Virus genome (UHGV): UHGV-1705688
Strand: one strand, 5' to 3'
Origin: a virus
DNA: 14,677 nucleotides
Position 1 is the stretch's first letter. The number at the start of each line of letters is the position of its first letter. Below, piece after piece: positions 1 to 10,074 of the stretch. Under the pieces are notes generated by a model. That model searched no databases. It was not told where the DNA came from and saw nothing but the letters and a program-made list of their open reading frames with translations. A program made the position numbers and the translations under genes.

Positions 1-390
1 GTCAAAGAAGCCAACAACTCGGGGCATTTTCGATGCTGATGCTGCGCTCCAGATGAGGTTCCCGGCACTATCGAAAACATCCAGATAACCGCTCTGCATT
101 CCGATGTTTCTCGTCGTGCGGATCATGCTGCCTGCATTGTCTTCAAGAAGCTCAGCTCCGGGTAAACCATACTTGTTTACGTCCAGTTTAAGCCACCGCA
201 AGGTTCCGTCATTCCAGAATTGTTGCTGGGTAAATCCCAGCGTGCTTCCGTCACCAAACGGGCTGTCTACCCGGTAAAACCCTTTTTCAGTCACAGCCCC
301 CAGAGAACGCTGATCATAAAAAAGGGTGGACCTGTTTTGCGAATCGACGAGCAACTTCCCGGCACTGTTATAAACTTCGAATCCGCTCAT
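1..390 (-). CDS. Hypothetical protein, 5' portion only (130 codons in window, continues past position 1). Likely tail-tip or fibre-associated accessory protein.
   Basis: ATG at 390..388 overlaps the TGA stop of the upstream 100-aa gene (ATGA overlap). Open frame to the window edge; my translation begins MSGFEVYNSAGKLLVDSQNRSTLFYDQRSLGAV. Not in the ORF track because no stop lies in the window. Family not recognised. Confidence 0.5.
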   Translation of the reverse strand, partial: MSGFEVYNSAGKLLVDSQNRSTLFYDQRSLGAVTEKGFYRVDSPFGDGSTLGFTQQQFWNDGTLRWLKLDVNKYGLPGAELLEDNAGSMIRTTRNIGMQSGYLDVFDSAGNLIWSAASASKMPRVVGFFD

Positions 391-689
391 TGAAAGTTAT
401 AAACCTCAACTGTGAAAGTGAATGCAGGACTACCAGTGGTCGGTAAATAGAATGCAGTGAATCCGCCATTAAAAGCGCGGCAGTAATATTCATTTGCAGT
501 TACGCCAGTTGTAACAATGGATATAAATGAACCATCCTGGGTGATACCGGAAAATGAAACGTCTTTCGTCGTTTCCCCGGCAGCAAATGTTACTGTTGTG
601 CTTCCAATATAGCGGATAGCATAATCACTTAAATCAACGGCAATACGCCCTGCTCCGTCCCAGCATTGCAACCCCTGTGGCATTACCAT
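387..689 (-). CDS. Hypothetical 100-aa protein immediately downstream of J and overlapping it; function unknown.
   Basis: ORF track 387..689. ATG at 689..687 overlaps the J stop (683..685) by 7 nt; a second in-frame ATG lies at 683..681. Its stop overlaps the start of the next gene. Family not recognised. Confidence 0.55.
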   Translation of the reverse strand: MVMPQGLQCWDGAGRIAVDLSDYAIRYIGSTTVTFAAGETTKDVSFSGITQDGSFISIVTTGVTANEYYCRAFNGGFTAFYLPTTGSPAFTFTVEVYNFQ

Positions 690-3600
690 AACCCCATTCT
701 GACACGCAGCACGTTGTTGCTGTCGTAGATTTGAATGAGCGTGCTGGATATCAACATCCTGCCGCCGCCGCCCACACCGTTAATTTCAAACGTTCCCCCT
801 TTATCAAGCTTCCAGCCTACAGAGCCAGCCACATAGTTATTCGACTGGATGTAATTGCCAATTTTTGCATTGCTTATGGTCCCGTCGCCAATAACTGTAT
901 CCCTGATAATGGCCTGGCCATTCTGGATAACGAACGGCAGTGTTACAGTCCCGCCGACCATAGTAGTCACGGCGAAACGGTCTGCCAGGAAGATTACCTG
1001 TGACTGCATGCCGGAGGGTGTATTTTGAACCCCAATACCCATCCCGGCAGCGTAATACTGCCCGTTACTGGACACCCCCACCTTGATGTTATACATCGCG
1101 CTGAGGTTACCGTTTACATCTGCTATAGCCTGTGCGTTGACGTTTATCGCTGCACTGTTTTCGCCTGATTTAACAGTCAGAGTGTTGATTTTTGTTGCCG
1201 AAGCCTGAGTGAAGTCAGCCAGGGTTTCGGTGAGATCGGTTGCATTGGAAATATTGCCACCGGCAGATGCATCCAGCGTAACAAGTGCGCGGGCAACCGC
1301 CGAACTGGTATCCGCAATCGTTGTGTCAATGCGGTCGATGCTGGCGCTGTTTCCGGCATTCGTCACGGTTTGAGATCGACGCGAAGTAACCTGCGCCAGC
1401 CCATTCTGGATTATGGCGATGGCGGAGTTCTTCACTCCCCCAGCCATGCCGTCCACAGACACGCTGATGTTATCGATGCGCTGGCCCAGCGCGGTATCAG
1501 CCGTCGCCACTGTCTGCTCAAGCTCTGAGAGGGAAGACGACACTTCACCGACGGTGCTCGAAAGCTCATTAACGCTGGTCTGAACCTTTCCGACGTCCTG
1601 GGCATTTTTGGCAATATCCTTCGCCTGCTGCTCCAGTTCGTCGTTGGCCTGTTTGATGTCGTCAGCCATGCCAGCAATTTTTTCATTGCTGTCCACCGCG
1701 TTCTCGATCAGGTCTTTGAACGTATCGGAGTCTTTAATTTCCTCCAGAATCACATCTGTGATATCGGAAACATCGATGCTGGCCTGTCCTCGCACCCATT
1801 CTGTGTACCCTGATTCGTTGCCGCTGCGGTCCACCAGCTGCGCGCGGTACCAGAAAATCTGCCCAGCCTTAAGGCCCATCTGCTGATATTTGCGCTGCGG
1901 ATAAGGCACATCGGCCAGCAGCATTGCATCATCTTCGCTACCGGTCAGGCTGTACTGAATTTCCGTCTTCAGCGTGTCTTCGGTATTCGCCGGGAATCCC
2001 CAGTTCAGCTCGATACCGAATACCACGTTTTCAGAAGCGATGAAGCCAACCGGCTTCGGTGGATTGCCCACTTTACCCGTCAGCGTTTTCTCTTCTGAAT
2101 AGCCCCATCCGGATGAAATTTCTGCGGCATTGATTGCGCGCACCCGCACCAGGTAGCGCCCGGCATAAATCCCCGGGACGTCGAATGACGTGGTGGAGGT
2201 GCGCGGCACGTTAACCCAGTTCCCGTCGTTGCGGCGCCATTGCGCTTCATAGGCGATAGCGTTCTGCGCCTGGTCCCAGCTCACGCGCATTGTTTCGACG
2301 CTGATATTTTGCTGAACCACGGAAAACGAGCTGATCACGATATTCGCAGGCGGCGACTGGTTGCCCGGCGGGATCACGCTCACCGGCCGTTGGTCAATGA
2401 TGGCTCCGGTATCGATACGGGCATATTTATCCGGGTCGTGCCATGCGCCGGTAATCGAGAAAGTGCCATCATTGTTATCGGAAACGCTGACAACACGATA
2501 CTGCTGCGCGTAAAGCTCGTCAGATTCAACCACCCAAACAGCTTCGGCCTGTGGCGTCTCACTGTATGCCGTGGTGACTGTGACTGATTCCCCGTTCACG
2601 GCCTGAATGGTCCTGCTCTGCGACGCTCCGGAGGGAAGGTTGAGAATAAGTCGATCACCTGGTGCTGCATCAGCTACGCGGTCAAGTTTGATAACGCGAC
2701 CGTTAACGGCGCTGATGCGGCCGCCCATAACCTTTCCGGAAAGCAGCTCGTCTGCCACGGCGATGATGTAGCCCGGCTGCGGAATGTTTCCGTCCAGCCC
2801 GACATCAAACGAAACAACGCGATCCTTGTTATTGGTGAGAATACCCCAGCGCCCCTTTCGGTTCGCCTCTGACTGCCTGGTGCAGCCGATGGCTGTCATT
2901 TCCAGCTGATTGAAGCCGTACCGCGCCACCAGCGCCTGCTCAAATACCGGCTCCATCGCGTCGGCATAAGCGTTACCCGGGTCTGACCATGAAACCAGCG
3001 CTGTGGTGTAGCGGCTTTTCGTGGTGCTGCTCGAATAGGTGAAGCGACCGCCAACAACGTTAGCGCGCGTATAGCTGTAATCAACATCGCGCGGCATGTC
3101 AGCCAGGGCCACAATCTGATCCCCGCCCCAGTAGGTCATGCCACGGAAGATAGCGGCAAAATCACGCAGGACTGTGTAGGCGTCGTTCCGGTCCTGAATG
3201 TACACGTTGCAGGTATAGCGTGGTTCTGTACCGTTGCCCCCTTTGCCGTCTGGTACCATCTGATCACAATACTGAGCAACCTGATAAAGCGTCCATTTAT
3301 CAATATTCGCAGCGGTCAAACGGTGCCCAAGGCCGAACCGGTCAGAAACAACCAGGTCGTAAAAAATCCACGCAGGGTTATCCGTCCATGCCCACTTAAA
3401 CGCACCGGTCCATGTACCGCTATAAGTGCGGGTTTCAGGGTCGTAGGTATCTGGAACGCGGATAACGCGGCCGCGCGGTTCGCATGAAATTTGAGGAATA
3501 GAGCCGTTGAACTGGCTTGAGTCGAATTCGACGTAGAGCAGCGCGGTGTTCGGGTAGCGCAGTTTGGCGTCAATCACCTCGGTGAAGCTCTGCAGCATCA

Positions 3601-4219
3601 TCGTGTCGCCGATCTTCGCGCTGTTGGCGTCAGAGGTAATCTTACGCAGACGTATTGTCCAGGTGCTGCCAGCCTGCGGTAAATCGATACGGTGGCTGCG
3701 CTCATAACCAGACGTCGTTTTGCCGGTCACGCTGGTATTGAGTACCGTCTGCCATGTGCCGCCGTCCGTCTGTAGGTCAATCGCATAATTGACCGAGTAA
3801 CCCACCAGATCGCCGTCGTCTTCCTGTTTGAAAAGCGAGGGCCATTTAAGACGCAGGCGAACTGCTGAAAGCTGCGTATTGGTAAACGTGCGCGTCCAGG
3901 CTGTGGCACTTGATACCTCAGTTCCTACGCTGATCTCGTTTTCGGTACCGGGAATACCCTGAATATATTTTTGCGCCTGCGTTCCCGCGCGAAACTCCCA
4001 CGTTACCCCGCTGAAGTTTTGGGAGCCGTCAGCATTCTCCAGCGCTGTTCCGTCCAGGTAGATATCTTTGCCGGTTAATTGCCCGGAGAACTCGCCCTCG
4101 CCAAGGGCGATTAAAATTTTCGCCTTCGCAACTGACTGCAGATCATCGGGCTGTTCAGTTGGAGTGCGTGTCTTTGAACTACCGCCTTTGCGGCCTTTAA
4201 TCGCGGTTGCAGTTGCCAT
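683..4219 (-). CDS. J: Tail tip / host specificity protein J (central tail fibre), 1178 aa. Lambda-like N-terminal and central part; longer coiled-coil segment and divergent C-terminal receptor-binding end.
   Basis: Largest ORF in the window, in the lambda position after I. Segments such as GTEPRYTCNVYIQDRNDAYTVLRDF and SQVIFLADRFAV...PFVIQNGQ match lambda J as I recall it; the last part ending GRMLISSTLIQIYDSNNVLRVRMGLW does not. ATG at 4219..4217. Confidence 0.93.
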   Translation of the reverse strand: MATATAIKGRKGGSSKTRTPTEQPDDLQSVAKAKILIALGEGEFSGQLTGKDIYLDGTALENADGSQNFSGVTWEFRAGTQAQKYIQGIPGTENEISVGTEVSSATAWTRTFTNTQLSAVRLRLKWPSLFKQEDDGDLVGYSVNYAIDLQTDGGTWQTVLNTSVTGKTTSGYERSHRIDLPQAGSTWTIRLRKITSDANSAKIGDTMMLQSFTEVIDAKLRYPNTALLYVEFDSSQFNGSIPQISCEPRGRVIRVPDTYDPETRTYSGTWTGAFKWAWTDNPAWIFYDLVVSDRFGLGHRLTAANIDKWTLYQVAQYCDQMVPDGKGGNGTEPRYTCNVYIQDRNDAYTVLRDFAAIFRGMTYWGGDQIVALADMPRDVDYSYTRANVVGGRFTYSSSTTKSRYTTALVSWSDPGNAYADAMEPVFEQALVARYGFNQLEMTAIGCTRQSEANRKGRWGILTNNKDRVVSFDVGLDGNIPQPGYIIAVADELLSGKVMGGRISAVNGRVIKLDRVADAAPGDRLILNLPSGASQSRTIQAVNGESVTVTTAYSETPQAEAVWVVESDELYAQQYRVVSVSDNNDGTFSITGAWHDPDKYARIDTGAIIDQRPVSVIPPGNQSPPANIVISSFSVVQQNISVETMRVSWDQAQNAIAYEAQWRRNDGNWVNVPRTSTTSFDVPGIYAGRYLVRVRAINAAEISSGWGYSEEKTLTGKVGNPPKPVGFIASENVVFGIELNWGFPANTEDTLKTEIQYSLTGSEDDAMLLADVPYPQRKYQQMGLKAGQIFWYRAQLVDRSGNESGYTEWVRGQASIDVSDITDVILEEIKDSDTFKDLIENAVDSNEKIAGMADDIKQANDELEQQAKDIAKNAQDVGKVQTSVNELSSTVGEVSSSLSELEQTVATADTALGQRIDNISVSVDGMAGGVKNSAIAIIQNGLAQVTSRRSQTVTNAGNSASIDRIDTTIADTSSAVARALVTLDASAGGNISNATDLTETLADFTQASATKINTLTVKSGENSAAINVNAQAIADVNGNLSAMYNIKVGVSSNGQYYAAGMGIGVQNTPSGMQSQVIFLADRFAVTTMVGGTVTLPFVIQNGQAIIRDTVIGDGTISNAKIGNYIQSNNYVAGSVGWKLDKGGTFEINGVGGGGRMLISSTLIQIYDSNNVLRVRMGLW

Positions 4220-4230
4220 ATTGCGTCCAT

Positions 4231-4253
4231 AAAAAAAGCCACCCGGAGGTGGC
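4231..4253 (-). terminator. Intrinsic (rho-independent) terminator oriented for minus-strand transcripts, ending 11 nt upstream of the J start codon.
   Basis: Plus-strand GCCACC-CGGA-GGTGGC (4238..4253), a perfect 6-bp GC-rich stem with 4-nt loop, adjacent to A7 (4231..4237); on the minus strand this reads hairpin followed by U7. Confidence 0.6.
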
Positions 4254-4385
4254 TACTGTTTAAATATCAGGCTGTTGGTAACAGGAATCCCTGGTTAATG
4301 TGTAAGCTCAGCCCGCCAGTGGTAGGCCGCTGGCGTTAACTGACCGAGGGATGGCTGAAGTACCCGGTTAAAACGGAGTAATAAG

Positions 4386-4601
4386 ATGATCGAAGAAAAG
4401 TTCGTGGATTTTAGATTTACTCTTGACGAAAATATTCCTAGAGAAATCGCTTTAGAAATTGTGGCTCTAAGACAAGTTACAATGGTATTAACAGCAGCAT
4501 TGCCAGTAGATACAAGGCAACAAGTTATTGAAATCCTATCAAAGACAAACTCACCACAAATTCAAGACATCGTCAAAAATATGAAGCTTATTGACGCCTA
4601 A
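4386..4601 (+). CDS. Hypothetical 71-aa protein in a low-GC insert, antisense to the late operon. Uncertain whether it is expressed.
   Basis: ORF track. ATG at 4386 preceded by GGAG with ~7-nt spacer. A/T-rich third codon positions with AGA/AGG/CTA codons suggest foreign origin. No convincing sigma-70 promoter found in 4254..4385. Overlaps the minus-strand 49-aa ORF by 51 nt. Confidence 0.35.
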   Translation: MIEEKFVDFRFTLDENIPREIALEIVALRQVTMVLTAALPVDTRQQVIEILSKTNSPQIQDIVKNMKLIDA

Positions 4602-4700
4602 TGTCATTGAAGCATCGTACTCTACGGTCTCATGCGGGACCGTTTCATTAACTTCAGATGTTTCATTTTCAGTTTTTTCTACTCGTGACTCAAAAGACAT
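4551..4700 (-). CDS. Hypothetical 49-aa acidic protein in the low-GC insert, co-directional with the late operon. Alternative or partner to the 71-aa plus-strand ORF.
   Basis: My own translation (below the ORF-track length cutoff): MSFESRVEKTENETSEVNETVPHETVEYDASMTLGVNKLHIFDDVLNLW. ATG at 4700..4698 is preceded by a perfect AAGGAG (plus 4707..4712) with 6-nt spacer, 20 nt downstream of the I stop. Confidence 0.3.
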   Translation of the reverse strand: MSFESRVEKTENETSEVNETVPHETVEYDASMTLGVNKLHIFDDVLNLW

Positions 4701-4720
4701 ACACATCTCCTTAACTTAGC

Positions 4721-5326
4721 TTACTGCTGATCTTCGACATAAATTCCGGCAGAAATAATCGCTCCGCCGATTCGACGCTTACCATAAAGCAGAGGCACCG
4801 GGTAGCCTTGCGCTGCAGTGTTGGTTACCCCGCCAAACGCATACGATGCACGGTTATCTGCGCTTTGTTTACTGGCTATGCCTGATGGCTGCGGTGAAAG
4901 CAGCTGAATAACCCCACCGAGGACCAACGAGGCACCAGTGGCAGCAGCAAACCCCGTCAATCCACCAGCAGCGAAAGCAGCGCCAATACCGCCAGAAACA
5001 AAGACTGCAGCAGTTATCAAAACTGCTCCTAATATCGTCTGAAAAAGACCAGCGCGTTTACTACCGATAATTACAGGCATAATCCTTACTACATCGCCTT
5101 CAGAGGGAAAACCCATCTCATCTGCGGCAATATTTCTTTTCCCTTTGAACACCGCGAAAGTTAATCCGCGACGTTTACTGCTGATCATGAAACTTTCGAA
5201 ACCGGGCAATGTTTTACTTAAAGCAATAGCAGCTTCACCAGTTCGCGCTATCAGTCGTTGATGGGTTCTACCGAATGTCTTTCCTAACACTCCGCCGAGC
5301 TGAATTGTTGTCATTACTTCTTTCAT
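4721..5326 (-). CDS. I: Tail assembly protein I, 201 aa.
   Basis: ORF track. Position between K and J; N-terminal pattern and hydrophobic Gly/Ala-rich C-terminal half ending PVPLLYGKRRIGG resemble lambda I. ATG at 5326..5324. Confidence 0.85.
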   Translation of the reverse strand: MKEVMTTIQLGGVLGKTFGRTHQRLIARTGEAAIALSKTLPGFESFMISSKRRGLTFAVFKGKRNIAADEMGFPSEGDVVRIMPVIIGSKRAGLFQTILGAVLITAAVFVSGGIGAAFAAGGLTGFAAATGASLVLGGVIQLLSPQPSGIASKQSADNRASYAFGGVTNTAAQGYPVPLLYGKRRIGGAIISAGIYVEDQQ

Positions 5327-5369: not shown

Positions 5370-5711
5370 TTAGATACAGCGTTCTATTACTTTAATCCGG
5401 CTGTTTATTCGATAAGCAAATAGCCCACCTTGATGACGGAATTCAATCTTGGTAATTCCGCCGTCCGATATTAAATCAACCATCTCAAGTTGAGATTGTG
5501 TAAATACAGTTTTACCACCGTCATAAGGCTGAATAAAAACGCTTCCATATTTTTGGCTTTCTTCTTGCCAGCCAGAGAGTATGCATTCAGCTACTGCGTC
5601 AATTTGTTTCTTCGATTGAAAATTATTTGACGCTGGTTCCTTCCGGAGATCCTGCATACTCGAACAACCAGCCATGATTATCAAAGAAAGTGTCAATAAT
5701 GTTTTTTTCAT
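5370..5711 (-). CDS. Predicted outer-membrane lipoprotein, 113-aa precursor, inserted between K and I. Candidate moron, possibly superinfection exclusion or receptor masking.
   Basis: Inside track ORF 5370..5879, but the true start is the internal ATG at 5711..5709, giving MKKTLLTLSLIIMAGCSS: a basic N-terminus, hydrophobic core and a lipobox-like IMAGC with Ser at +2. Gene is markedly AT-rich versus neighbours and is followed by its own terminator. Lambda has no gene here. Confidence 0.75.
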   Translation of the reverse strand: MKKTLLTLSLIIMAGCSSMQDLRKEPASNNFQSKKQIDAVAECILSGWQEESQKYGSVFIQPYDGGKTVFTQSQLEMVDLISDGGITKIEFRHQGGLFAYRINSRIKVIERCI

Positions 5712-5730: not shown

Positions 5731-5759
5731 TTACAAAAGGTTAGCACAGAGATTTGTAA
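5731..5759 (-). promoter_or_regulatory. Inverted repeat TTACAAA-N15-TTTGTAA spanning the K stop codon, overlapping a weak sigma-70-like -35/-10 candidate for the lipoprotein gene.
   Basis: Plus 5731..5737 TTACAAA and 5753..5759 TTTGTAA are reverse complements. On the minus strand a TTACAA -35-like hexamer and a TGTAAA -10-like hexamer lie ~18 nt apart, 15-20 nt upstream of the lipoprotein ATG. Matches to consensus are modest. Confidence 0.25.
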
Positions 5760-6451
5760 CGTAGAACCTTCATCGTCCTTTCCTGCCAGTAGCCACCATA
5801 CGGCACACGCTGGCTCAGATGTCCATACAGGTGGTGCAGCAGCATATTGCCCTCCAGCAGGATTCCCGCGTGATTCCACTTATCAGCCTGGACCTGCATG
5901 ATCACCATATCGCCGGGTTTCGGTGGTCCGTCGAATTCACGGAATCCGCACTCATACCAGCAATCCTGATAGAAGTTGTCCGGATAGTCGTTTTCCCACC
6001 AGGGATAATCAACCCGGTAATCGTGGAGCTCGATACCATGCGTTTGCCGGAAATAGCTCATTACCAGCCCCCAGCAGTCGAAGTGTCCAAGCACAAACGG
6101 ACGCTCCAGCAGTGGCAGTTCTCCGCGCGGCTGGATGGTGCGTAAATCCCCCTCCGGCCAGCTCACAATATGCCAGGGTAAAAGCGTTGCGTCGCATTGC
6201 GCTTTATCCAGTTCGCTCGGCTGCGTAGTGGCGTCAGGGTGACTGTGAACGATGGCGATCACCGTACCCCAGTCCTCAGCAGCTGCATAGTCTTCTGGCG
6301 ACAGGTGAAAATGTTCTGTCGGCTCGGTAGCGAGGTTACTACATGGAAAATATTTCTCTACCCGGCTCTTTTGCGCCACCACGCCGCAACACTCATGAGG
6401 ATATTCAGCTGCAGCATGCGCCATAATCGCATCGATGGTTTTCTGACGCAT
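5741..6451 (-). CDS. K: Tail assembly protein K, 236 aa, with a JAMM/MPN metalloprotease-like domain and an NlpC/P60-like cysteine peptidase domain.
   Basis: ORF track. HSHPDATTQPSELD fits the JAMM motif HxH-x7-S-x2-D; the C-terminal half has a conserved Cys (FDCWGLV) and His (HAGILLEG), consistent with NlpC/P60. Lambda position between L and I. Confidence 0.9.
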   Translation of the reverse strand: MRQKTIDAIMAHAAAEYPHECCGVVAQKSRVEKYFPCSNLATEPTEHFHLSPEDYAAAEDWGTVIAIVHSHPDATTQPSELDKAQCDATLLPWHIVSWPEGDLRTIQPRGELPLLERPFVLGHFDCWGLVMSYFRQTHGIELHDYRVDYPWWENDYPDNFYQDCWYECGFREFDGPPKPGDMVIMQVQADKWNHAGILLEGNMLLHHLYGHLSQRVPYGGYWQERTMKVLRYKSLC

Positions 6452-6452
6452 A

Positions 6453-7208
6453 TCAACTCCTGATCAAAGACGTGCCCGGGAAGCCACCAAACGAGAGTTC
6501 GTTATCTTCGCCGAATCGGAGTTTGCAGGCCGTCAGCGTGCCGTTGCATTCATCCAGCGACGGATCGCTTACCGGGTTGTTGTTTTTGTCGAAATAGCGC
6601 GTACCGGCATAGTCGCAGCCATCGCCGGTTCGGTACTTGTTCCGGATGCACCATGTGCACAGAGAATGAAGCTGGCGGGTAGGTATCATCAGCCCCTGCA
6701 GATCCATAGGGCTGGATAGTGTGAACTCAACAACTTCATTGGTTTCACTGCTCTTTGCATCGATGTAGAAAACCTTCAGCTTCTCCTGGGTCGGATCGGC
6801 TGTCGGATTGCCTCCGGTGAAGTTTCTCGCATCGAGATACTTACCAAGGGTGTCATGTATCGTCACCTTCGCCTGCAGCATATCGTCGTAAGCCAGGCAA
6901 AGCGCGGTGATCGAACTGTCGAGGTTAGCAACCGAAAGTTTTGGCTGGGCACTACTTCCCGAGGTTGAAGCCTCGATCCCCTCAATCTGACACGGCCAGG
7001 CTTTATACTCCTCACCCTGCCACCAGATGGACTTCGCTGGAAGTTTATTCTCATCCCCGCCTGCAGCCTCAATCTCTTCCGGGGTATGCGCGATGTTATG
7101 TGCGTGGAAGCGGAGTACATCTGACATACCGAACGCCGTGCCATCGACAGAAAAAAGCCGGACTTCATTGCCCGGCTCGAGTTTTTGATAATCAGCATTA
7201 AGACTCAT
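6453..7208 (-). CDS. L: Minor tail protein L, 251 aa, with C-terminal cysteine cluster (probable Fe-S site).
   Basis: ORF track. Start ATG overlaps the M stop (ATGA). C-terminal CTWC...C...C cysteine cluster as in lambda gpL. Synteny M-L-K. Confidence 0.9.
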   Translation of the reverse strand: MSLNADYQKLEPGNEVRLFSVDGTAFGMSDVLRFHAHNIAHTPEEIEAAGGDENKLPAKSIWWQGEEYKAWPCQIEGIEASTSGSSAQPKLSVANLDSSITALCLAYDDMLQAKVTIHDTLGKYLDARNFTGGNPTADPTQEKLKVFYIDAKSSETNEVVEFTLSSPMDLQGLMIPTRQLHSLCTWCIRNKYRTGDGCDYAGTRYFDKNNNPVSDPSLDECNGTLTACKLRFGEDNELSFGGFPGTSLIRS

Positions 7209-7552
7209 GGTGCAAATGCCTGTTCAAACGTTGCGGTTACGGTTATCACTTTTACGTTTTTAACCACCTTTTTGAGCGTGTCAGCCTCGACACGCCACAG
7301 CGCGGTATCGCCGAAAGGCGGAGTGAAAATAAACGACTTCACTTTATGCCGCCGAAGGAAAGCGTGAATTTCATTCGCTGTAGTCGGATCCCCTGAAAAG
7401 GAATATTCATAGGTACGAATCTCATCATTCAGGCCGGAGCCGCTCACCTGTGCGTACCCGTCGCCGAACTGAACCTTCCTGACTGTGTCTTTGCTTCCCT
7501 CGGTGGGCTGGCTGGAAACCTTAATGCCCCAGGGGAATGTTTCTATCGTCAT
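7205..7552 (-). CDS. M: Minor tail protein M, 115 aa.
   Basis: ORF track. Size and position between H and L; VRKVQFGDGYAQ resembles lambda M VRKVRFGDGYSQ as recalled. Confidence 0.85.
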   Translation of the reverse strand: MTIETFPWGIKVSSQPTEGSKDTVRKVQFGDGYAQVSGSGLNDEIRTYEYSFSGDPTTANEIHAFLRRHKVKSFIFTPPFGDTALWRVEADTLKKVVKNVKVITVTATFEQAFAP

Positions 7553-7557
7553 AACTG

Positions 7558-10074
7558 TTACCTGCGATTGGTCGCATTCCAGATAAGCCCACCGGGCTGG
7601 ATTGCCCTGGCGATACCCTCGTTGACAGATTTATTAATCACCTGCTCATACGCCTTACCCAGCCTGTCTCCGTCGTTTTGCTGCTGTGCGTTACCGGAAG
7701 CATTCTCGACCGTCACCGGGGCATATACACTGACACCGAAAGGTGCTGCAGCCGGGCCTGTACCACCGCCCCCGACATACCCTCCCGTGGCATAGCCTTT
7801 CATCATCCGGTAAAGATTGCCGACGCCGATCCGACTGGTAGCCTCTTTGGTGAAAACAAATTCGCCACGGTGAACGACACCTGCGGGTTCATATTTCCCA
7901 CCCGAACCGGTGAATCCCCCGCTGGCAAACCCCAGCGCCGTGGAGGCTGAATCTACCAGTCCGGTCATTGCCTGCTTCAGCAGAATTTGTGTCAGCATGG
8001 AGAGCGTGGAGCGGGTAAAGTCAGCCCAGTCAGCCTTTCCGCGTGTCAGCATGTCTGCCATATTCTGCCCGATGCCATCAAACGTACTGGTGGCAACCGA
8101 CTTCATCTGGCCATAAGCATCTGAAGCGGAATCAACATAATCTGCCCATGCGGATTTGGCCCCGGATTGCCAGTCGTCCCGCAGCTTATCCTGCTCGGCG
8201 TAATACGCCTGCAGCGCCTGCAGCTCATTCTGATAACCAGCGTCGTTCTCCGAACCGCCACCATTTTTCCAGCCCTGAAGAAGCTGGGCCTCCTCATTGC
8301 GGCGTTGTGCTGCACGACTGCTCATACCAGCACTTTCCGCAAGGGCTCGGGTTTTCTCGCCGATCTGCGTGACGTATTTTTGGGACGTATCCTGCAGGCG
8401 GTTAAGCCGCTCCTGCGCCACTATCTGATCGCCAAGCTTCGCATTCAGCTCCGCACGGGAAAGCACCTCACTTTTACTGGCCAGCAGGGATTTTTCCTCA
8501 GCAGAAAGCGTTCGGGTCTTCGCGGCCTCTTCCAGAACCGTAAAGCGGGACTGCTGACGCCACAGCTCCTGACGCTGCTGGCTGATGGTGTCATTGATGC
8601 TCTTATGCTCCTGCAGGGTGCGCAGCTGTGTCTGTAGCTCCAGCGTCTGGGCACTGGCCGTATCGGTGGCACGGGCACCTGCGGGGGTTCTGATTGCCGG
8701 GGTCTTCTTCGGCTTTTTAAGGGTGTCTTCGTACTCTTTTTTCGCGGCAGCCAGGTTGATGTTGTAGTCAGCCTGGAGGATCCGCCCCTCTTTCAGCGCC
8801 TTGTTGAGCTCGCTCTGCCTGGCCGTGTATTTCTCCAGTGCCGTCTGCGTTTTGGCATAGTTTGCCTGTGCCTGCGCAGCATACTTCTGGCGATCCGATT
8901 CCGCAGCCGCTTCGCGCGATGCATTCTCTTCGTTCGCCCTGGCAATTCCCGCCTGCTGCTGCGCCATATCCAGCGCAAGCCTGGCCGTTTCGCGGTCATT
9001 CCAGAATCGGGCGCGAGCCTCATCATTGACATATCGGTCACCTTTACGCAGGTTCCAGATTTCATCAGCTTTTTTGAACGCGGCTTCGGCTTTTGCCACC
9101 ATCTCCTGCGCGGTGTCAGGTCGGCCAATATCGAGGGCTGCATCCCACATCGACTTGAAGGCGCGCTTCAGGGAGTCCGCTGAAGACTCTATCGTCCCCA
9201 TATTGTCGCGGATGGCTTTGGTCTGATCGTTGAATCCGGCTGTAGCCGCCTCGTTAGCCGCCTGCAGTGCGCCAGCCTCATCACCGGCACGCTGCAGCTG
9301 CGCCACATGGGCAATCTGTTCTGCGGTAACGTTATGGAACTGCTGGGCCATCGCGATCAGGCCCGATGTCGGGTCAGTTGCGAGCTTGCCGTAGGCTGCA
9401 GCGACTTTCTCCACCGGCACGCCGGAGGCATCAGTAAACCGCGCCACCGCCTGGCTCATTTCATCAAAGCGCGAGCCAGTACGCACACCTGCATTGATAA
9501 GCTCGGTCAGGGCTTCACTGGTCTGGTTGAACGTTAGCCCCGCTGCCTGTCCGTTCCGCGCCAGTGCCAGCATGCGGTCAGCTGTCAGTCCGGCTGTGTT
9601 CCCCGACAGTACCAGCGTTTTGTTGAAATCAGACAGAGTGGAAGAGCCCTGGTACCAGGCATAGAACAACGCGCCCGTTGCAACGGACAATGCACCAATG
9701 CCGACCATCAACGGGGAAATCGTCCCCAGCAACGCCCGGAATGTCGGAATGATCCCGCCAAAGGAGTCCTTAACCTGACCGCCCTGCTGAAGCAGAATCA
9801 GCCAGGGGTTCTGCCCACCCGCCAGCTGCGTGGCCACGTCAGTAAACTGCGCCGGGAGCATACGCATCGCTGCGTTATACTGACCCACTGAAATACCGGC
9901 CTTACGCGCGGCGTTCTCCTGGCGGCTGAAGGACTGCTGGATACGTAACGCTTCATCGTTTGCCGTATTGCCGGTCTGTTTTAATTCTTTTTTGACGTAG
10001 CTGAGCTGCTCGTTGAATTTTGTCGAGTTAACGTCAAGGTTAACGACCAGATCACCGACTGCCGTCTGGGCCAT
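7558..10074 (-). CDS. H: Tail tape measure protein H, 838 aa.
   Basis: ORF track. Long stretches match lambda H as recalled (AGISVGQYNAAMRMLPAQFTDVATQLAGGQNPWLILLQQGGQVKDSFGG; GKYEPAGVVHRGEFVFTKEATSRIGVGNLYRMMKGYATGGYVG). ATG at 10074..10072 overlaps the end of the T frame. Confidence 0.93.
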   Translation of the reverse strand: MAQTAVGDLVVNLDVNSTKFNEQLSYVKKELKQTGNTANDEALRIQQSFSRQENAARKAGISVGQYNAAMRMLPAQFTDVATQLAGGQNPWLILLQQGGQVKDSFGGIIPTFRALLGTISPLMVGIGALSVATGALFYAWYQGSSTLSDFNKTLVLSGNTAGLTADRMLALARNGQAAGLTFNQTSEALTELINAGVRTGSRFDEMSQAVARFTDASGVPVEKVAAAYGKLATDPTSGLIAMAQQFHNVTAEQIAHVAQLQRAGDEAGALQAANEAATAGFNDQTKAIRDNMGTIESSADSLKRAFKSMWDAALDIGRPDTAQEMVAKAEAAFKKADEIWNLRKGDRYVNDEARARFWNDRETARLALDMAQQQAGIARANEENASREAAAESDRQKYAAQAQANYAKTQTALEKYTARQSELNKALKEGRILQADYNINLAAAKKEYEDTLKKPKKTPAIRTPAGARATDTASAQTLELQTQLRTLQEHKSINDTISQQRQELWRQQSRFTVLEEAAKTRTLSAEEKSLLASKSEVLSRAELNAKLGDQIVAQERLNRLQDTSQKYVTQIGEKTRALAESAGMSSRAAQRRNEEAQLLQGWKNGGGSENDAGYQNELQALQAYYAEQDKLRDDWQSGAKSAWADYVDSASDAYGQMKSVATSTFDGIGQNMADMLTRGKADWADFTRSTLSMLTQILLKQAMTGLVDSASTALGFASGGFTGSGGKYEPAGVVHRGEFVFTKEATSRIGVGNLYRMMKGYATGGYVGGGGTGPAAAPFGVSVYAPVTVENASGNAQQQNDGDRLGKAYEQVINKSVNEGIARAIQPGGLIWNATNRR

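Follow-up and report, generated by a model that had tools for sequence, protein, structure and literature searches.

The closest described counterparts of the genes analyzed here are PyoF11 and PyoF12 of the F-type pyocins. These genes always lie directly 3' of the central fibre gene, their products are essential for killing and co-vary with the fibre's final 60 residues, and homologues occur in N15, T1, KS9, and others (Saha et al., bioRxiv 10.1101/2021.02.16.431561). The same study described a module 1 (the fibre end with F11 and F12) and a module 2 (the side fibre and its chaperones), which assort independently. PyoF11 and PyoF12 were detected in particles by mass spectrometry, tomography showed extra density at the end of the fibre, and AlphaFold3 predicted that the two proteins attach at the fibre C terminus, with folds like those of the R-pyocin fibre and Pam1 domains (He et al., PMC12874032). 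PyoF11 has been assigned one Ig-like domain and PyoF12 two, an assignment that awaits validation (Gu et al., PMC13455828). PA0642 is a putative adhesin on the distal beta-prism; it was found in purified particles by mass spectrometry, and its deletion lowers activity and killing (bioRxiv 10.64898/2026.02.24.707460). In the small coliphages, alleles of a locus downstream of gpJ, which includes exclusion genes, predict the terminal receptor (Maffei et al., PMC8594841), and receptor binding has been proven for one such RBP-locus protein (Dunbar et al., PMC12685063).

We analyzed a stretch of 14,677 nucleotides from a virus genome (UHGV-1705688), referred to here as the window. It is the late, structural part of a lambda-like phage or prophage, in which every gene is on the minus strand. 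Pfam matches identified the major capsid protein E, FI, Z, U, V, G, the tape-measure protein H, M, L, and K, and there was a weak, sub-threshold match to I. J and the two small genes that follow it are laid out as follows.

683..4219, minus strand: J, a J-like central tail fibre or tail-tip gene (1178 aa, from the ORF and its translation)
387..689, minus strand: ORF-A, 100 aa, or more likely 98 aa if the ATG at 683 is the start; a one-module, PyoF11-like protein matching phrog_7961
1..390, minus strand: ORF-B, the first 130 of 213 codons; a two-module, PyoF12-like protein of Pfam DUF8377 / phrog_4524
4237..4254, minus strand: a terminator-like hairpin with a T-run, directly upstream of the J start (a consensus match only)

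A terminator is annotated at the place equivalent to this hairpin in N15, T1, and HK639. The junction between J and ORF-A, ATGGTAATG, straddles the J stop codon: the first ATG of ORF-A (689) gives a 7 nt overlap with the J stop TAA (685..683), and the second (683) gives a TAATG overlap. We consider the second start, which would yield 98 aa, more likely because a length of 98 aa is common among database entries and the ORF-A homologues in KS9, N15, T1, Acinetobacter, and E. coli begin three residues ahead of the motif glycine. The stop of ORF-A and the start of ORF-B overlap as ATGA at 390..387, and ORF-B is cut by the window edge after 130 codons (complete relatives have 213 aa). A scan of the window sequence revealed no terminator-like or promoter-like site between J, ORF-A, and ORF-B. 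These overlaps confirm the arrangement of overlapping genes after J that an earlier note on this DNA had described, and ORF-A and ORF-B appear to be translationally coupled to J within the late tail operon.

The J protein matched NCBIfam lambda_TipJ (E 1.8e-161), a partial match below the curated cut-off, and gave coiled-coil-type matches across residues 816-1034, with a coiled-coil-like stretch at about 816-1035. It is 55% identical overall to HK639 J, which is named as a predicted fold-switching fibre (PMC12874032), and the identity is much higher over the C-terminal third.

The locus resembles the pyocin genes ('Specificity Module 1'; PA0642 in PAO1) in several respects. ORF-A and ORF-B lie directly 3' of a J-like fibre gene on the same strand, as do their counterparts in every relative examined. 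Like PyoF11 and PyoF12, they would encode a one-module beta-sandwich protein of ~100 aa and a two-module one of ~215–240 aa, judging from the 213 aa relatives of ORF-B and the strands of AlphaFold2 (AF2) models. Their type tracks the central fibre's last tens of residues, and J, like the F-pyocin fibre, has a long coiled coil. ORF-A also matches the same PDB entries as the predicted distal domains of PyoF11 and PyoF12 (the R-pyocin fibre and the Pam1 tailspike). Unlike the pyocin loci, the window belongs to a temperate enterobacterial phage or prophage and not to a tailocin. The link to PyoF11 and PyoF12 runs through KS9 gp39/gp40, N15, and T1, the homologues listed by the pyocin authors, and the KS9, N15, and T1 proteins have in common with ORF-A and ORF-B the hairpin motif described below and the N-terminal ~27 aa alone. 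The N terminus of ORF-A is homologous to that of KS9 gp39 (MNTGLQIFDGAGRVILD), with an hhalign probability of 84% (E 7.7e-6 over 27 aa), and ORF-B matched KS9 gp40, which carries the motif at its N terminus and at residue 117, at the level of the motif only (E 0.012). The structural role that the earlier note had suggested for the two genes is supported indirectly, by the presence of PyoF11 and PyoF12 in particles and their essentiality (PMC12874032; bioRxiv 10.1101/2021.02.16.431561) and by the predicted folds.

We propose, with a probability of about 0.7, that ORF-A and ORF-B are virion proteins that dock through N-terminal beta-hairpins on the C terminus of the J trimer, bind the terminal receptor, and form a cassette that is exchanged. 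We infer their presence in the virion, the hairpin docking, the receptor binding, and a trigger role by analogy with the systems described above and from the properties of the locus that follow.

The earlier note had recognized neither protein family. ORF-A matched phrog_7961 (E 9e-34); searching with the single sequence gave 39 cluster representatives as its relatives and a broader profile gave 170, all of about 96–115 aa. For ORF-B we retrieved 109 cluster representatives, all of which, including 95%-identical ones, carry a precomputed match to PF28254 (DUF8377); through these matches of its homologues ORF-B can be assigned to DUF8377, and it also matches phrog_4524. A search with the DUF8377 profile against 1.8 billion representatives gave just 88 clusters at E <= 0.001, and the family is therefore small. 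The pair corresponds to the PyoF11/PyoF12 and N15 gp22/gp23 type. We found no curated function or naming paper for either family in the databases and literature, no usable match to ORF-A or ORF-B in Pfam (E up to 1) or NCBIfam (E up to 0.1), and chance-level matches alone (antibody light chains, DIP-eta) in PDB profile searches with both proteins. A match to Lom or Tfa, which according to the earlier note would have refuted its reading, was looked for in Pfam and NCBIfam at the same thresholds, and neither these nor Stf turned up: there was no Ail_Lom, tail fibre repeat, or Caudo_TAP match. We also considered the bulb-type (B_lectin) beta-prism lectins and rejected them as a family assignment, having found neither a Pfam B_lectin match nor a beta-prism II structural neighbour.

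The AF2 model of ORF-A (pLDDT 86) consists of a hairpin and six strands. That of ORF-B, made with a 95%-identical full-length protein (P0001; pLDDT 88, pTM 0.83), consists of a hairpin and six strands followed by a hairpin and seven strands; domain boundaries were taken from the DSSP strings of the models. Residues 102-204 of ORF-B match phrog_2427, a ~100 aa family that is also matched by the ORF-A N terminus and by N15 gp22. From the strand layout and this match, ORF-A is therefore one module and ORF-B two. The idea of related beta-strand modules put forward in the earlier note thus holds in the form of one hairpin-plus-sandwich module in ORF-A and two in ORF-B. Shuffle-calibrated pairwise comparisons gave z scores of 7.8 for ORF-A and KS9 gp39, 6.1 for KS9 gp39 and the C-terminal module of gp40, and 4.8 for modules 1 and 2 of Rtp44, showing modules of different proteins to be linked in a network of similarities that are weak to moderate. 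When compared with a library of predicted viral structures, ORF-B matched 16 uncharacterized proteins of ~220–290 aa at E <= 0.001, from phages of Acinetobacter, Pseudomonas, Xanthomonas, and Achromobacter, among others. The predicted models resemble the receptor-binding domains of the R-pyocin fibre (6CL5/6CL6) and the Pam1 tailspike (7EEA), and they also resemble a solved LptDE-bound RBP.

The feature that recurs in these proteins is a short motif near the start of each module.

633..674, minus strand: the N-terminal hairpin motif of ORF-A, GLQCWDGAGRIAVD (residues 6-19)
343..384, minus strand: copy 1 of the motif in ORF-B, GFEVYNSAGKLLVD (residues 3-16)
46..87, minus strand: copy 2 of the motif in ORF-B, YLDVFDSAGNLIWS (residues 102-115), where the second module begins
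390..413, minus strand: the C-terminal strand of ORF-A, TVEVYNFQ (residues 93-100, the last 8)

Both ORF-B peptides had been pointed out in the earlier note, and both are present and conserved; the N-terminal copy in ORF-A and the looser copy at the C terminus of J had been missed. The note had also linked TVEVYNFQ to the repeat. This link is weak: EVYN alone is in common, the turn glycine is absent, and the segment does not match the motif expression. It is a conserved C-terminal strand, in which E95, F99, and Q100 are invariant among 27 ORF-A homologues. From the three copies in the window we derived the expression G/Y-h-x-h-[YFW]-[DN]-x-x-G-x-h and applied it to the six-frame ORFs of the window and nine loci (127,037 aa). 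In this set the strict expression matched the three window copies and the mid-protein sites of N15 gp23, T1 gp31, and mEp237 gp22, the latter three independently of its derivation, and gave zero background matches. A looser expression also matched the N terminus of N15 gp22 and the extreme C terminus of each J examined (IQIYDSNNVLRVRMGLW in the J of the window).

The motif is the most conserved part of the ORF-A family. G6, Q8, C9, W10, D11, and G14 are invariant among the 27 homologues, and the motif is near-identical in the Acinetobacter, E. coli, and Cronobacter counterparts despite divergence elsewhere. In a 40-sequence alignment of the ORF-B family, G3, F4, and N8 of copy 1 are invariant, as are G101, V105, A116, P123, and R124 in the region of copy 2, and both copies keep most of the invariant columns. 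A mid-protein motif occurs at the equivalent place in N15 gp23, T1 gp31, mEp237 gp22, KS9 gp40, and the Pseudomonas prophage counterparts. When profiles of ORF-A and of the N- and C-terminal halves of ORF-B were compared by hhalign, a 13–20 aa segment containing the motif was the only part that aligned (E 0.01–0.08). With narrow motif HMMs the cross-matches among copies were non-significant, and the top non-self matches were nearly all motif sites of positional homologues. As profile-to-profile scores among the copies are weak (E about 0.01), the repeat is best read as a short structural motif, not a long duplication. In the AF2 models each copy is a predicted beta-hairpin with a D/N-x-x-G turn, with a confidence below that of the adjoining sandwich; the strands span residues 8-10 and 16-19 in ORF-A and 5-7 and 13-16 (pLDDT 65–69) in copy 1 of ORF-B.

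The comparison of J genes places the boundary of the exchanged segment within J itself.

785..871, minus strand: the conserved J box, NAKIGNYIQSNNYVAGSVGWKLDKGGTFE (residues 1117-1145), the edge of the exchangeable cassette
686..784, minus strand: the variable J tail, INGVGGGGRMLISSTLIQIYDSNNVLRVRMGLW (the last 33 aa), which ends in a loose motif copy and is the putative docking site of ORF-A and ORF-B

This loose copy of the motif occupies the last 18 residues of J. The box, NAKIGNYIQSNNYVAGSxGWKLDKGGTFE (short form NAKIGNYIQSNNYVAG...GWKLDK), is near-invariant across J proteins with differing downstream modules. The J gene of mEp237 is 96% identical in DNA to that of the window until, 33 codons ahead of the stop (window position 776), the identity ends; past this breakpoint, mEp237 has an N15-type J tail followed by N15-type gp22/gp23 and cor. 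N15, T1, and mEp237 have a different pair of the same size in the same slot, then cor, and KS9 has a third type of pair, followed directly by lysis genes.

The order J, ~100 aa, ~215 aa recurs, its stops and starts overlapping, in Flotzy and HK639 (where the orthologues of ORF-A and ORF-B are gp24 and gp25), Enterobacter prophages, E. coli, Cronobacter, and Acinetobacter. Among phages of E. coli it is shared by Flotzy, HK639, LLS, CharmingMan, LMessi, and Eeyore; Enterobacter prophages that are 95% identical have it too, and the more distant members in E. coli, Cronobacter, and Acinetobacter have J proteins of 1053 to 3501 aa. A scan for the J C terminus with one genome per species yielded 72 loci, which together with 8 phage or prophage loci make ~80. 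A ~100 + ~215 aa pair is present in 57 of these ~80 J-bearing loci, in Burkholderia, fluorescens-group Pseudomonas, and many Enterobacterales; the scan with one genome per species gave no P. aeruginosa locus, and there was no Pseudomonas entry among the best 120 of 170 matches in an alignment-based search with ORF-A-like proteins. Together with the overlaps and the terminator-free junctions, this synteny supports the co-expression with J that the earlier note had proposed.

The type of ORF-A and ORF-B co-varies with the type of J tail. Among 48 non-redundant loci, the identity of the last 35 aa of J correlated with that of ORF1 and ORF2 of the pair (Spearman 0.48 and 0.52, respectively), compared with 0.29 and 0.12 for the preceding 95 aa of J. 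We then took the 116 locus pairs in which the upstream part of J is >= 80% identical. Where the J tails were >= 70% identical (n = 47), the mean identity was 0.72 for ORF1 and 0.75 for ORF2; where they were < 50% identical (n = 51), it was 0.29 and 0.21. Over the range from Acinetobacter to E. coli, four short elements (the J tail, the N termini of ORF-A and ORF-B, and the mid motif of ORF-B) are near-constant and the remainder diverges, the pattern expected for a shared interface. ORF-A, ORF-B, and the final ~33 codons of J most likely make up a single host-range cassette that is exchanged horizontally.

In the Enterobacter prophages, Flotzy, and HK639, the 3' end of ORF-B is overlapped by a gene on the opposite strand whose 120 aa product has a lipoprotein signal (…LLLAAGC…). 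In these relatives the gene sits just past what would be the window edge, and in HK639 it is present, at 23535-23897, but unannotated. The protein is phrog_25729 and had no PDB match. The arrangement parallels that of cor, llp, and rtp45 beside their receptor-binding genes, and RBP loci with exclusion genes are comparably arranged (PMC8594841). By this analogy, the convergent lipoprotein gene of the relatives would probably provide superinfection exclusion.

In the mechanism that we envisage, ORF-A and ORF-B would be co-translated with J and form a distal 'cap' of the central tail fibre. The cap would attach non-covalently to the last ~25–35 residues of the J trimer through the N-terminal beta-hairpins (in ORF-B, also the inter-module one) of the form G-h-x-h-aromatic-D/N-x-x-G, and the variable beta-sandwich modules, one in ORF-A and two in ORF-B, would face the cell surface as the terminal receptor-binding element. 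Engagement of the receptor would trigger a rearrangement of J that opens the tail, the signal entering the metastable coiled-coil region of J, and the cassette would be swapped at the conserved J box. The receptor, we guess, is an outer-membrane protein, since an OMP-binding protein is among the resemblances and a lipoprotein is encoded next door. We also entertain, tentatively, a geometry in which one copy of ORF-A and one of ORF-B supply three hairpin-plus-sandwich modules and bind 1:1 as a pseudo-trimer; the cap would then turn the fibre's C3 symmetry into a single asymmetric face for receptor binding.

Two other readings keep the proteins at the fibre. ORF-A and ORF-B could be assembly chaperones of the C-terminal part of the J trimer that leave before the virion is mature, so that J itself binds the receptor. 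For the pyocin proteins, 'binding to it or acting as chaperones' were the alternatives initially given by Saha et al. (bioRxiv 10.1101/2021.02.16.431561), co-variation with the J tail suits a dedicated chaperone as well as a bound partner, and the counterpart proteins have not been seen in any cryo-EM map. We nevertheless regard this role as unlikely, given that PyoF11, PyoF12, and PA0642 are found in purified particles and that there is tomographic density at the fibre end (PMC12874032; bioRxiv 10.64898/2026.02.24.707460). The predicted folds resemble distal receptor-binding domains and not known fibre chaperones, there is no Caudo_TAP match, and the variable parts evolve fast, as expected of host-facing surfaces. 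The proteins could also be adaptors that mount a downstream side tail fibre on the central fibre without binding a receptor. In HK639, Flotzy, N15, mEp237, and the Enterobacter prophages a tail fibre gene, with a ~420 aa product in HK639, Flotzy, and N15, does lie within ~500 bp. In KS9, however, the pair is followed directly by lysis genes without a fibre gene, and no fibre gene comes next in T1 or in one E. coli locus (L013). Moreover, in F-pyocins the side fibre is bound directly to the central fibre's coiled coil (PMC12874032, PMC13455828), and the independent assortment of modules 1 and 2 (Saha et al., bioRxiv 10.1101/2021.02.16.431561) also argues against an adaptor, a role that we think decidedly improbable.

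The annotation of related proteins points in a different direction, toward host membrane proteins of the lysogenic-conversion or 'moron' kind: RefSeq and PHROG label N15 gp22/gp23 and T1 gp32/gp31 as 'outer membrane protein', 'membrane associated protein', or moron, and the GC content over ORF-A (0.44–0.46) is somewhat below that of J (0.52–0.60). Against this reading, the translations of the two proteins, read by eye, contain no signal peptide, lipobox, or hydrophobic helix, their predicted folds are soluble beta-sandwiches, and their genes are apparently coupled translationally to J in the late tail operon, with no promoter-like site; the true morons of the window differ, being low in GC and in one case having a lipobox. 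We give a moron function hardly any weight. The pair most likely clips onto the end of J and recognizes the host cell, as part of a widespread and barely studied host-range cassette.

If this is correct, the surface molecule used by temperate Enterobacter and E. coli phages of this kind would be set by the ORF-A/ORF-B locus and not by the body of J, and the exchangeable unit would be defined to the codon, comprising the conserved box and the final 33 codons of J together with ORF-A and ORF-B. It could then be used directly to predict host range from sequence and to engineer phages or F-type tailocins. The assignment would also correct the misleading labels of the sister families ('outer membrane protein', 'moron') and give DUF8377 a testable function.

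The sister type nearest in layout is that of N15 gp22/gp23, T1 gp32/gp31, HK022 p24/p25, and mEp237 gp21/gp22, an FhuA-type module with cor that fills the ORF-A/ORF-B slot with proteins of 100 + 225 aa. Its motifs are placed as in ORF-A and ORF-B, at the N terminus of the small protein and, in the large one, at the N terminus and at about residue 105-118, N15 shares the downstream synteny (a fibre gene, then umuD-like), and the module is interchangeable with ORF-A/ORF-B at the breakpoint 33 codons before the J stop. In sequence the two types are distinct: the N15-type proteins fall in PHROG 557/425, as opposed to 7961/4524, were not retrieved by the DUF8377 profile from 1.8 billion proteins at E <= 0.001, and accompany a different J tail type. 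Because cor takes the place of the 120 aa lipoprotein, the N15 type presumably uses a different receptor.

The RBPs of the Rtp44/Oekolampad type, which bind LptD in small siphophages (PDB 9RPT), are one polypeptide where the window has two, and their receptor is proven. Alignment of ORF-A and ORF-B with seven Rtp44-like proteins by hhalign gave probabilities of <= 4%, with the motifs alone aligning; as no significant profile similarity extends past the motifs, ORF-A and ORF-B should not be filed in the Rtp44 protein family. Several of our loci have a single protein of 309–325 aa in the slot of the pair. Four of the six that we examined (L068, L073, L074, and L082) begin with MPQGLY... or MPSGLL..., resembling MAQGIY... 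of Rtp44 and MPQGLQ... of ORF-A, and in these four, as in Rtp44, the motif occurs three times, at about residues 4, 115, and 213. ORF-A and ORF-B add up to 313 aa, and joined end to end they have motifs at 4, 103, and 202. We offer the collinearity of the pair with a three-module single-chain receptor binder as a hypothesis, since profile comparison gives it no homology support beyond the motifs. If the pseudo-trimer geometry were true, the single-chain, three-motif Rtp44/Oekolampad-type proteins, which bind the receptor as monomers, would represent the same solution, and the hairpin motif together with the J tail would serve as a portable 'docking code' with which lambdoid phages and F-type tailocins could be re-targeted by swapping the cassette.

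There is no new principle here, because the same idea has already been proposed for pyocins and small coliphages. The kind of system is already known, recently and largely from predictions, and to it the locus adds a subfamily, DUF8377 with phrog_7961, that is without a published function. Functional analogues lie further afield. T5 pb5 is a separate terminal receptor binder at the end of a trimeric fibre, the pb4 central fibre, and T5 likewise pairs its receptor binder with an exclusion lipoprotein (Llp); in lambda, the C-terminal receptor-binding domain is fused to J.

The short beta-hairpin motif that the earlier note had seen twice in ORF-B (1-390, minus strand), one of the two proposed tail-tip cap genes, is indeed present there in both copies, and two further sites had been overlooked, one in the other cap gene, ORF-A, and one in the tail-tip gene J:

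633-674, minus strand, motif copy at the N terminus of ORF-A, GLQCWDGAGRIAVD
686-739, minus strand, looser form of the motif at the extreme C terminus of J, LIQIYDSNNVLRVRMGLW

Four motif sites in the window are spread over three consecutive proteins (J, ORF-A, and ORF-B). J itself (683-4219, minus strand) also contains a long coiled-coil-like segment (residues about 816-1035) with SMC/Rad50-type matches, which is ~30 residues longer than that of HK639 J. Upstream of J, the following features were found:

4237-4254, minus strand, terminator-like GC-rich hairpin and T-run, directly 5' of the J start codon, within the tail operon
About 4260-4720, low-GC (0.38-0.44) non-tail insert between genes I and J
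4386..4601, plus strand, 71-aa ORF in this insert, antisense to the operon
4551..4706, minus strand, 51-aa ORF in this insert, sense
About 5370-5711, minus strand, low-GC ORF between K (5741-6451) and I (4721-5326), internal start MKKTLLTLSLIIMAGCSS...

A terminator is annotated at the matching position in N15, T1, and HK639, and the hairpin may attenuate expression of J, ORF-A, and ORF-B or separate it from that of the upstream tail genes. Neither ORF of the I/J insert had a significant match in Pfam. The ORF between K and I, a moron-like insertion within the tail-tip gene block, probably encodes a lipoprotein.

A conserved 120-aa lipoprotein gene (MK.LFA.ALLL.AGC...) is convergent with the ORF-B gene and overlaps its 3' end in three comparison loci:

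7356-7718, minus strand, HK639
8607-8969, minus strand, Enterobacter prophage L005
7417-7779, minus strand, L001

The gene is unannotated in the HK639 RefSeq record, and its product, which belongs to a family without assigned function (phrog_25729), is a candidate superinfection-exclusion factor. In the Enterobacter prophages (L005-L007, 9096-12047), a partial fibre gene in inverted orientation and a resolvase/invertase gene come after the side tail fibre gene, which ends in a Peptidase_S74 domain. The region resembles an invertible host-range switch adjoining the cap cassette; a comparable switch has been noted in phage LLS (PMC12315714).

Database labels and gene calls for the counterparts were also inspected. 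Those of N15 and T1 (PHROGs 557 and 425) are:

6528-7507, N15/T1 locus L003
8608-9602, N15/T1 locus L004

Their database entries carry the names "outer membrane protein" and "membrane associated protein" and the category "moron." Reading their translations by eye, we found no signal peptide or membrane helix, and the labels look like legacy misannotation. The Cronobacter ORF-A homologue (L015/L016, 5714-6004) has no call in one assembly and a too-short call (76 aa) in the other; its full frame begins MSGLQCWDGSGKLIVD exactly at the J stop.

Elsewhere, one protein of 309-325 aa takes the place of ORF-A and ORF-B. In L060, L062, L064, L068, L073, L074, and L082, its ORF starts at or just past the J stop; the remaining case is:

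8753-9688, minus strand, single-chain protein of L017

Because these proteins fill the ORF-A/ORF-B slot, and because four of them (L068, L073, L074, and L082) are Rtp44-like and, as in that receptor-binding protein, carry three copies of a G-L-x-h motif (at about residues 4, 115, and 213), our results suggest that the two-gene arrangement and the single-chain proteins may be related by splitting or fusion.
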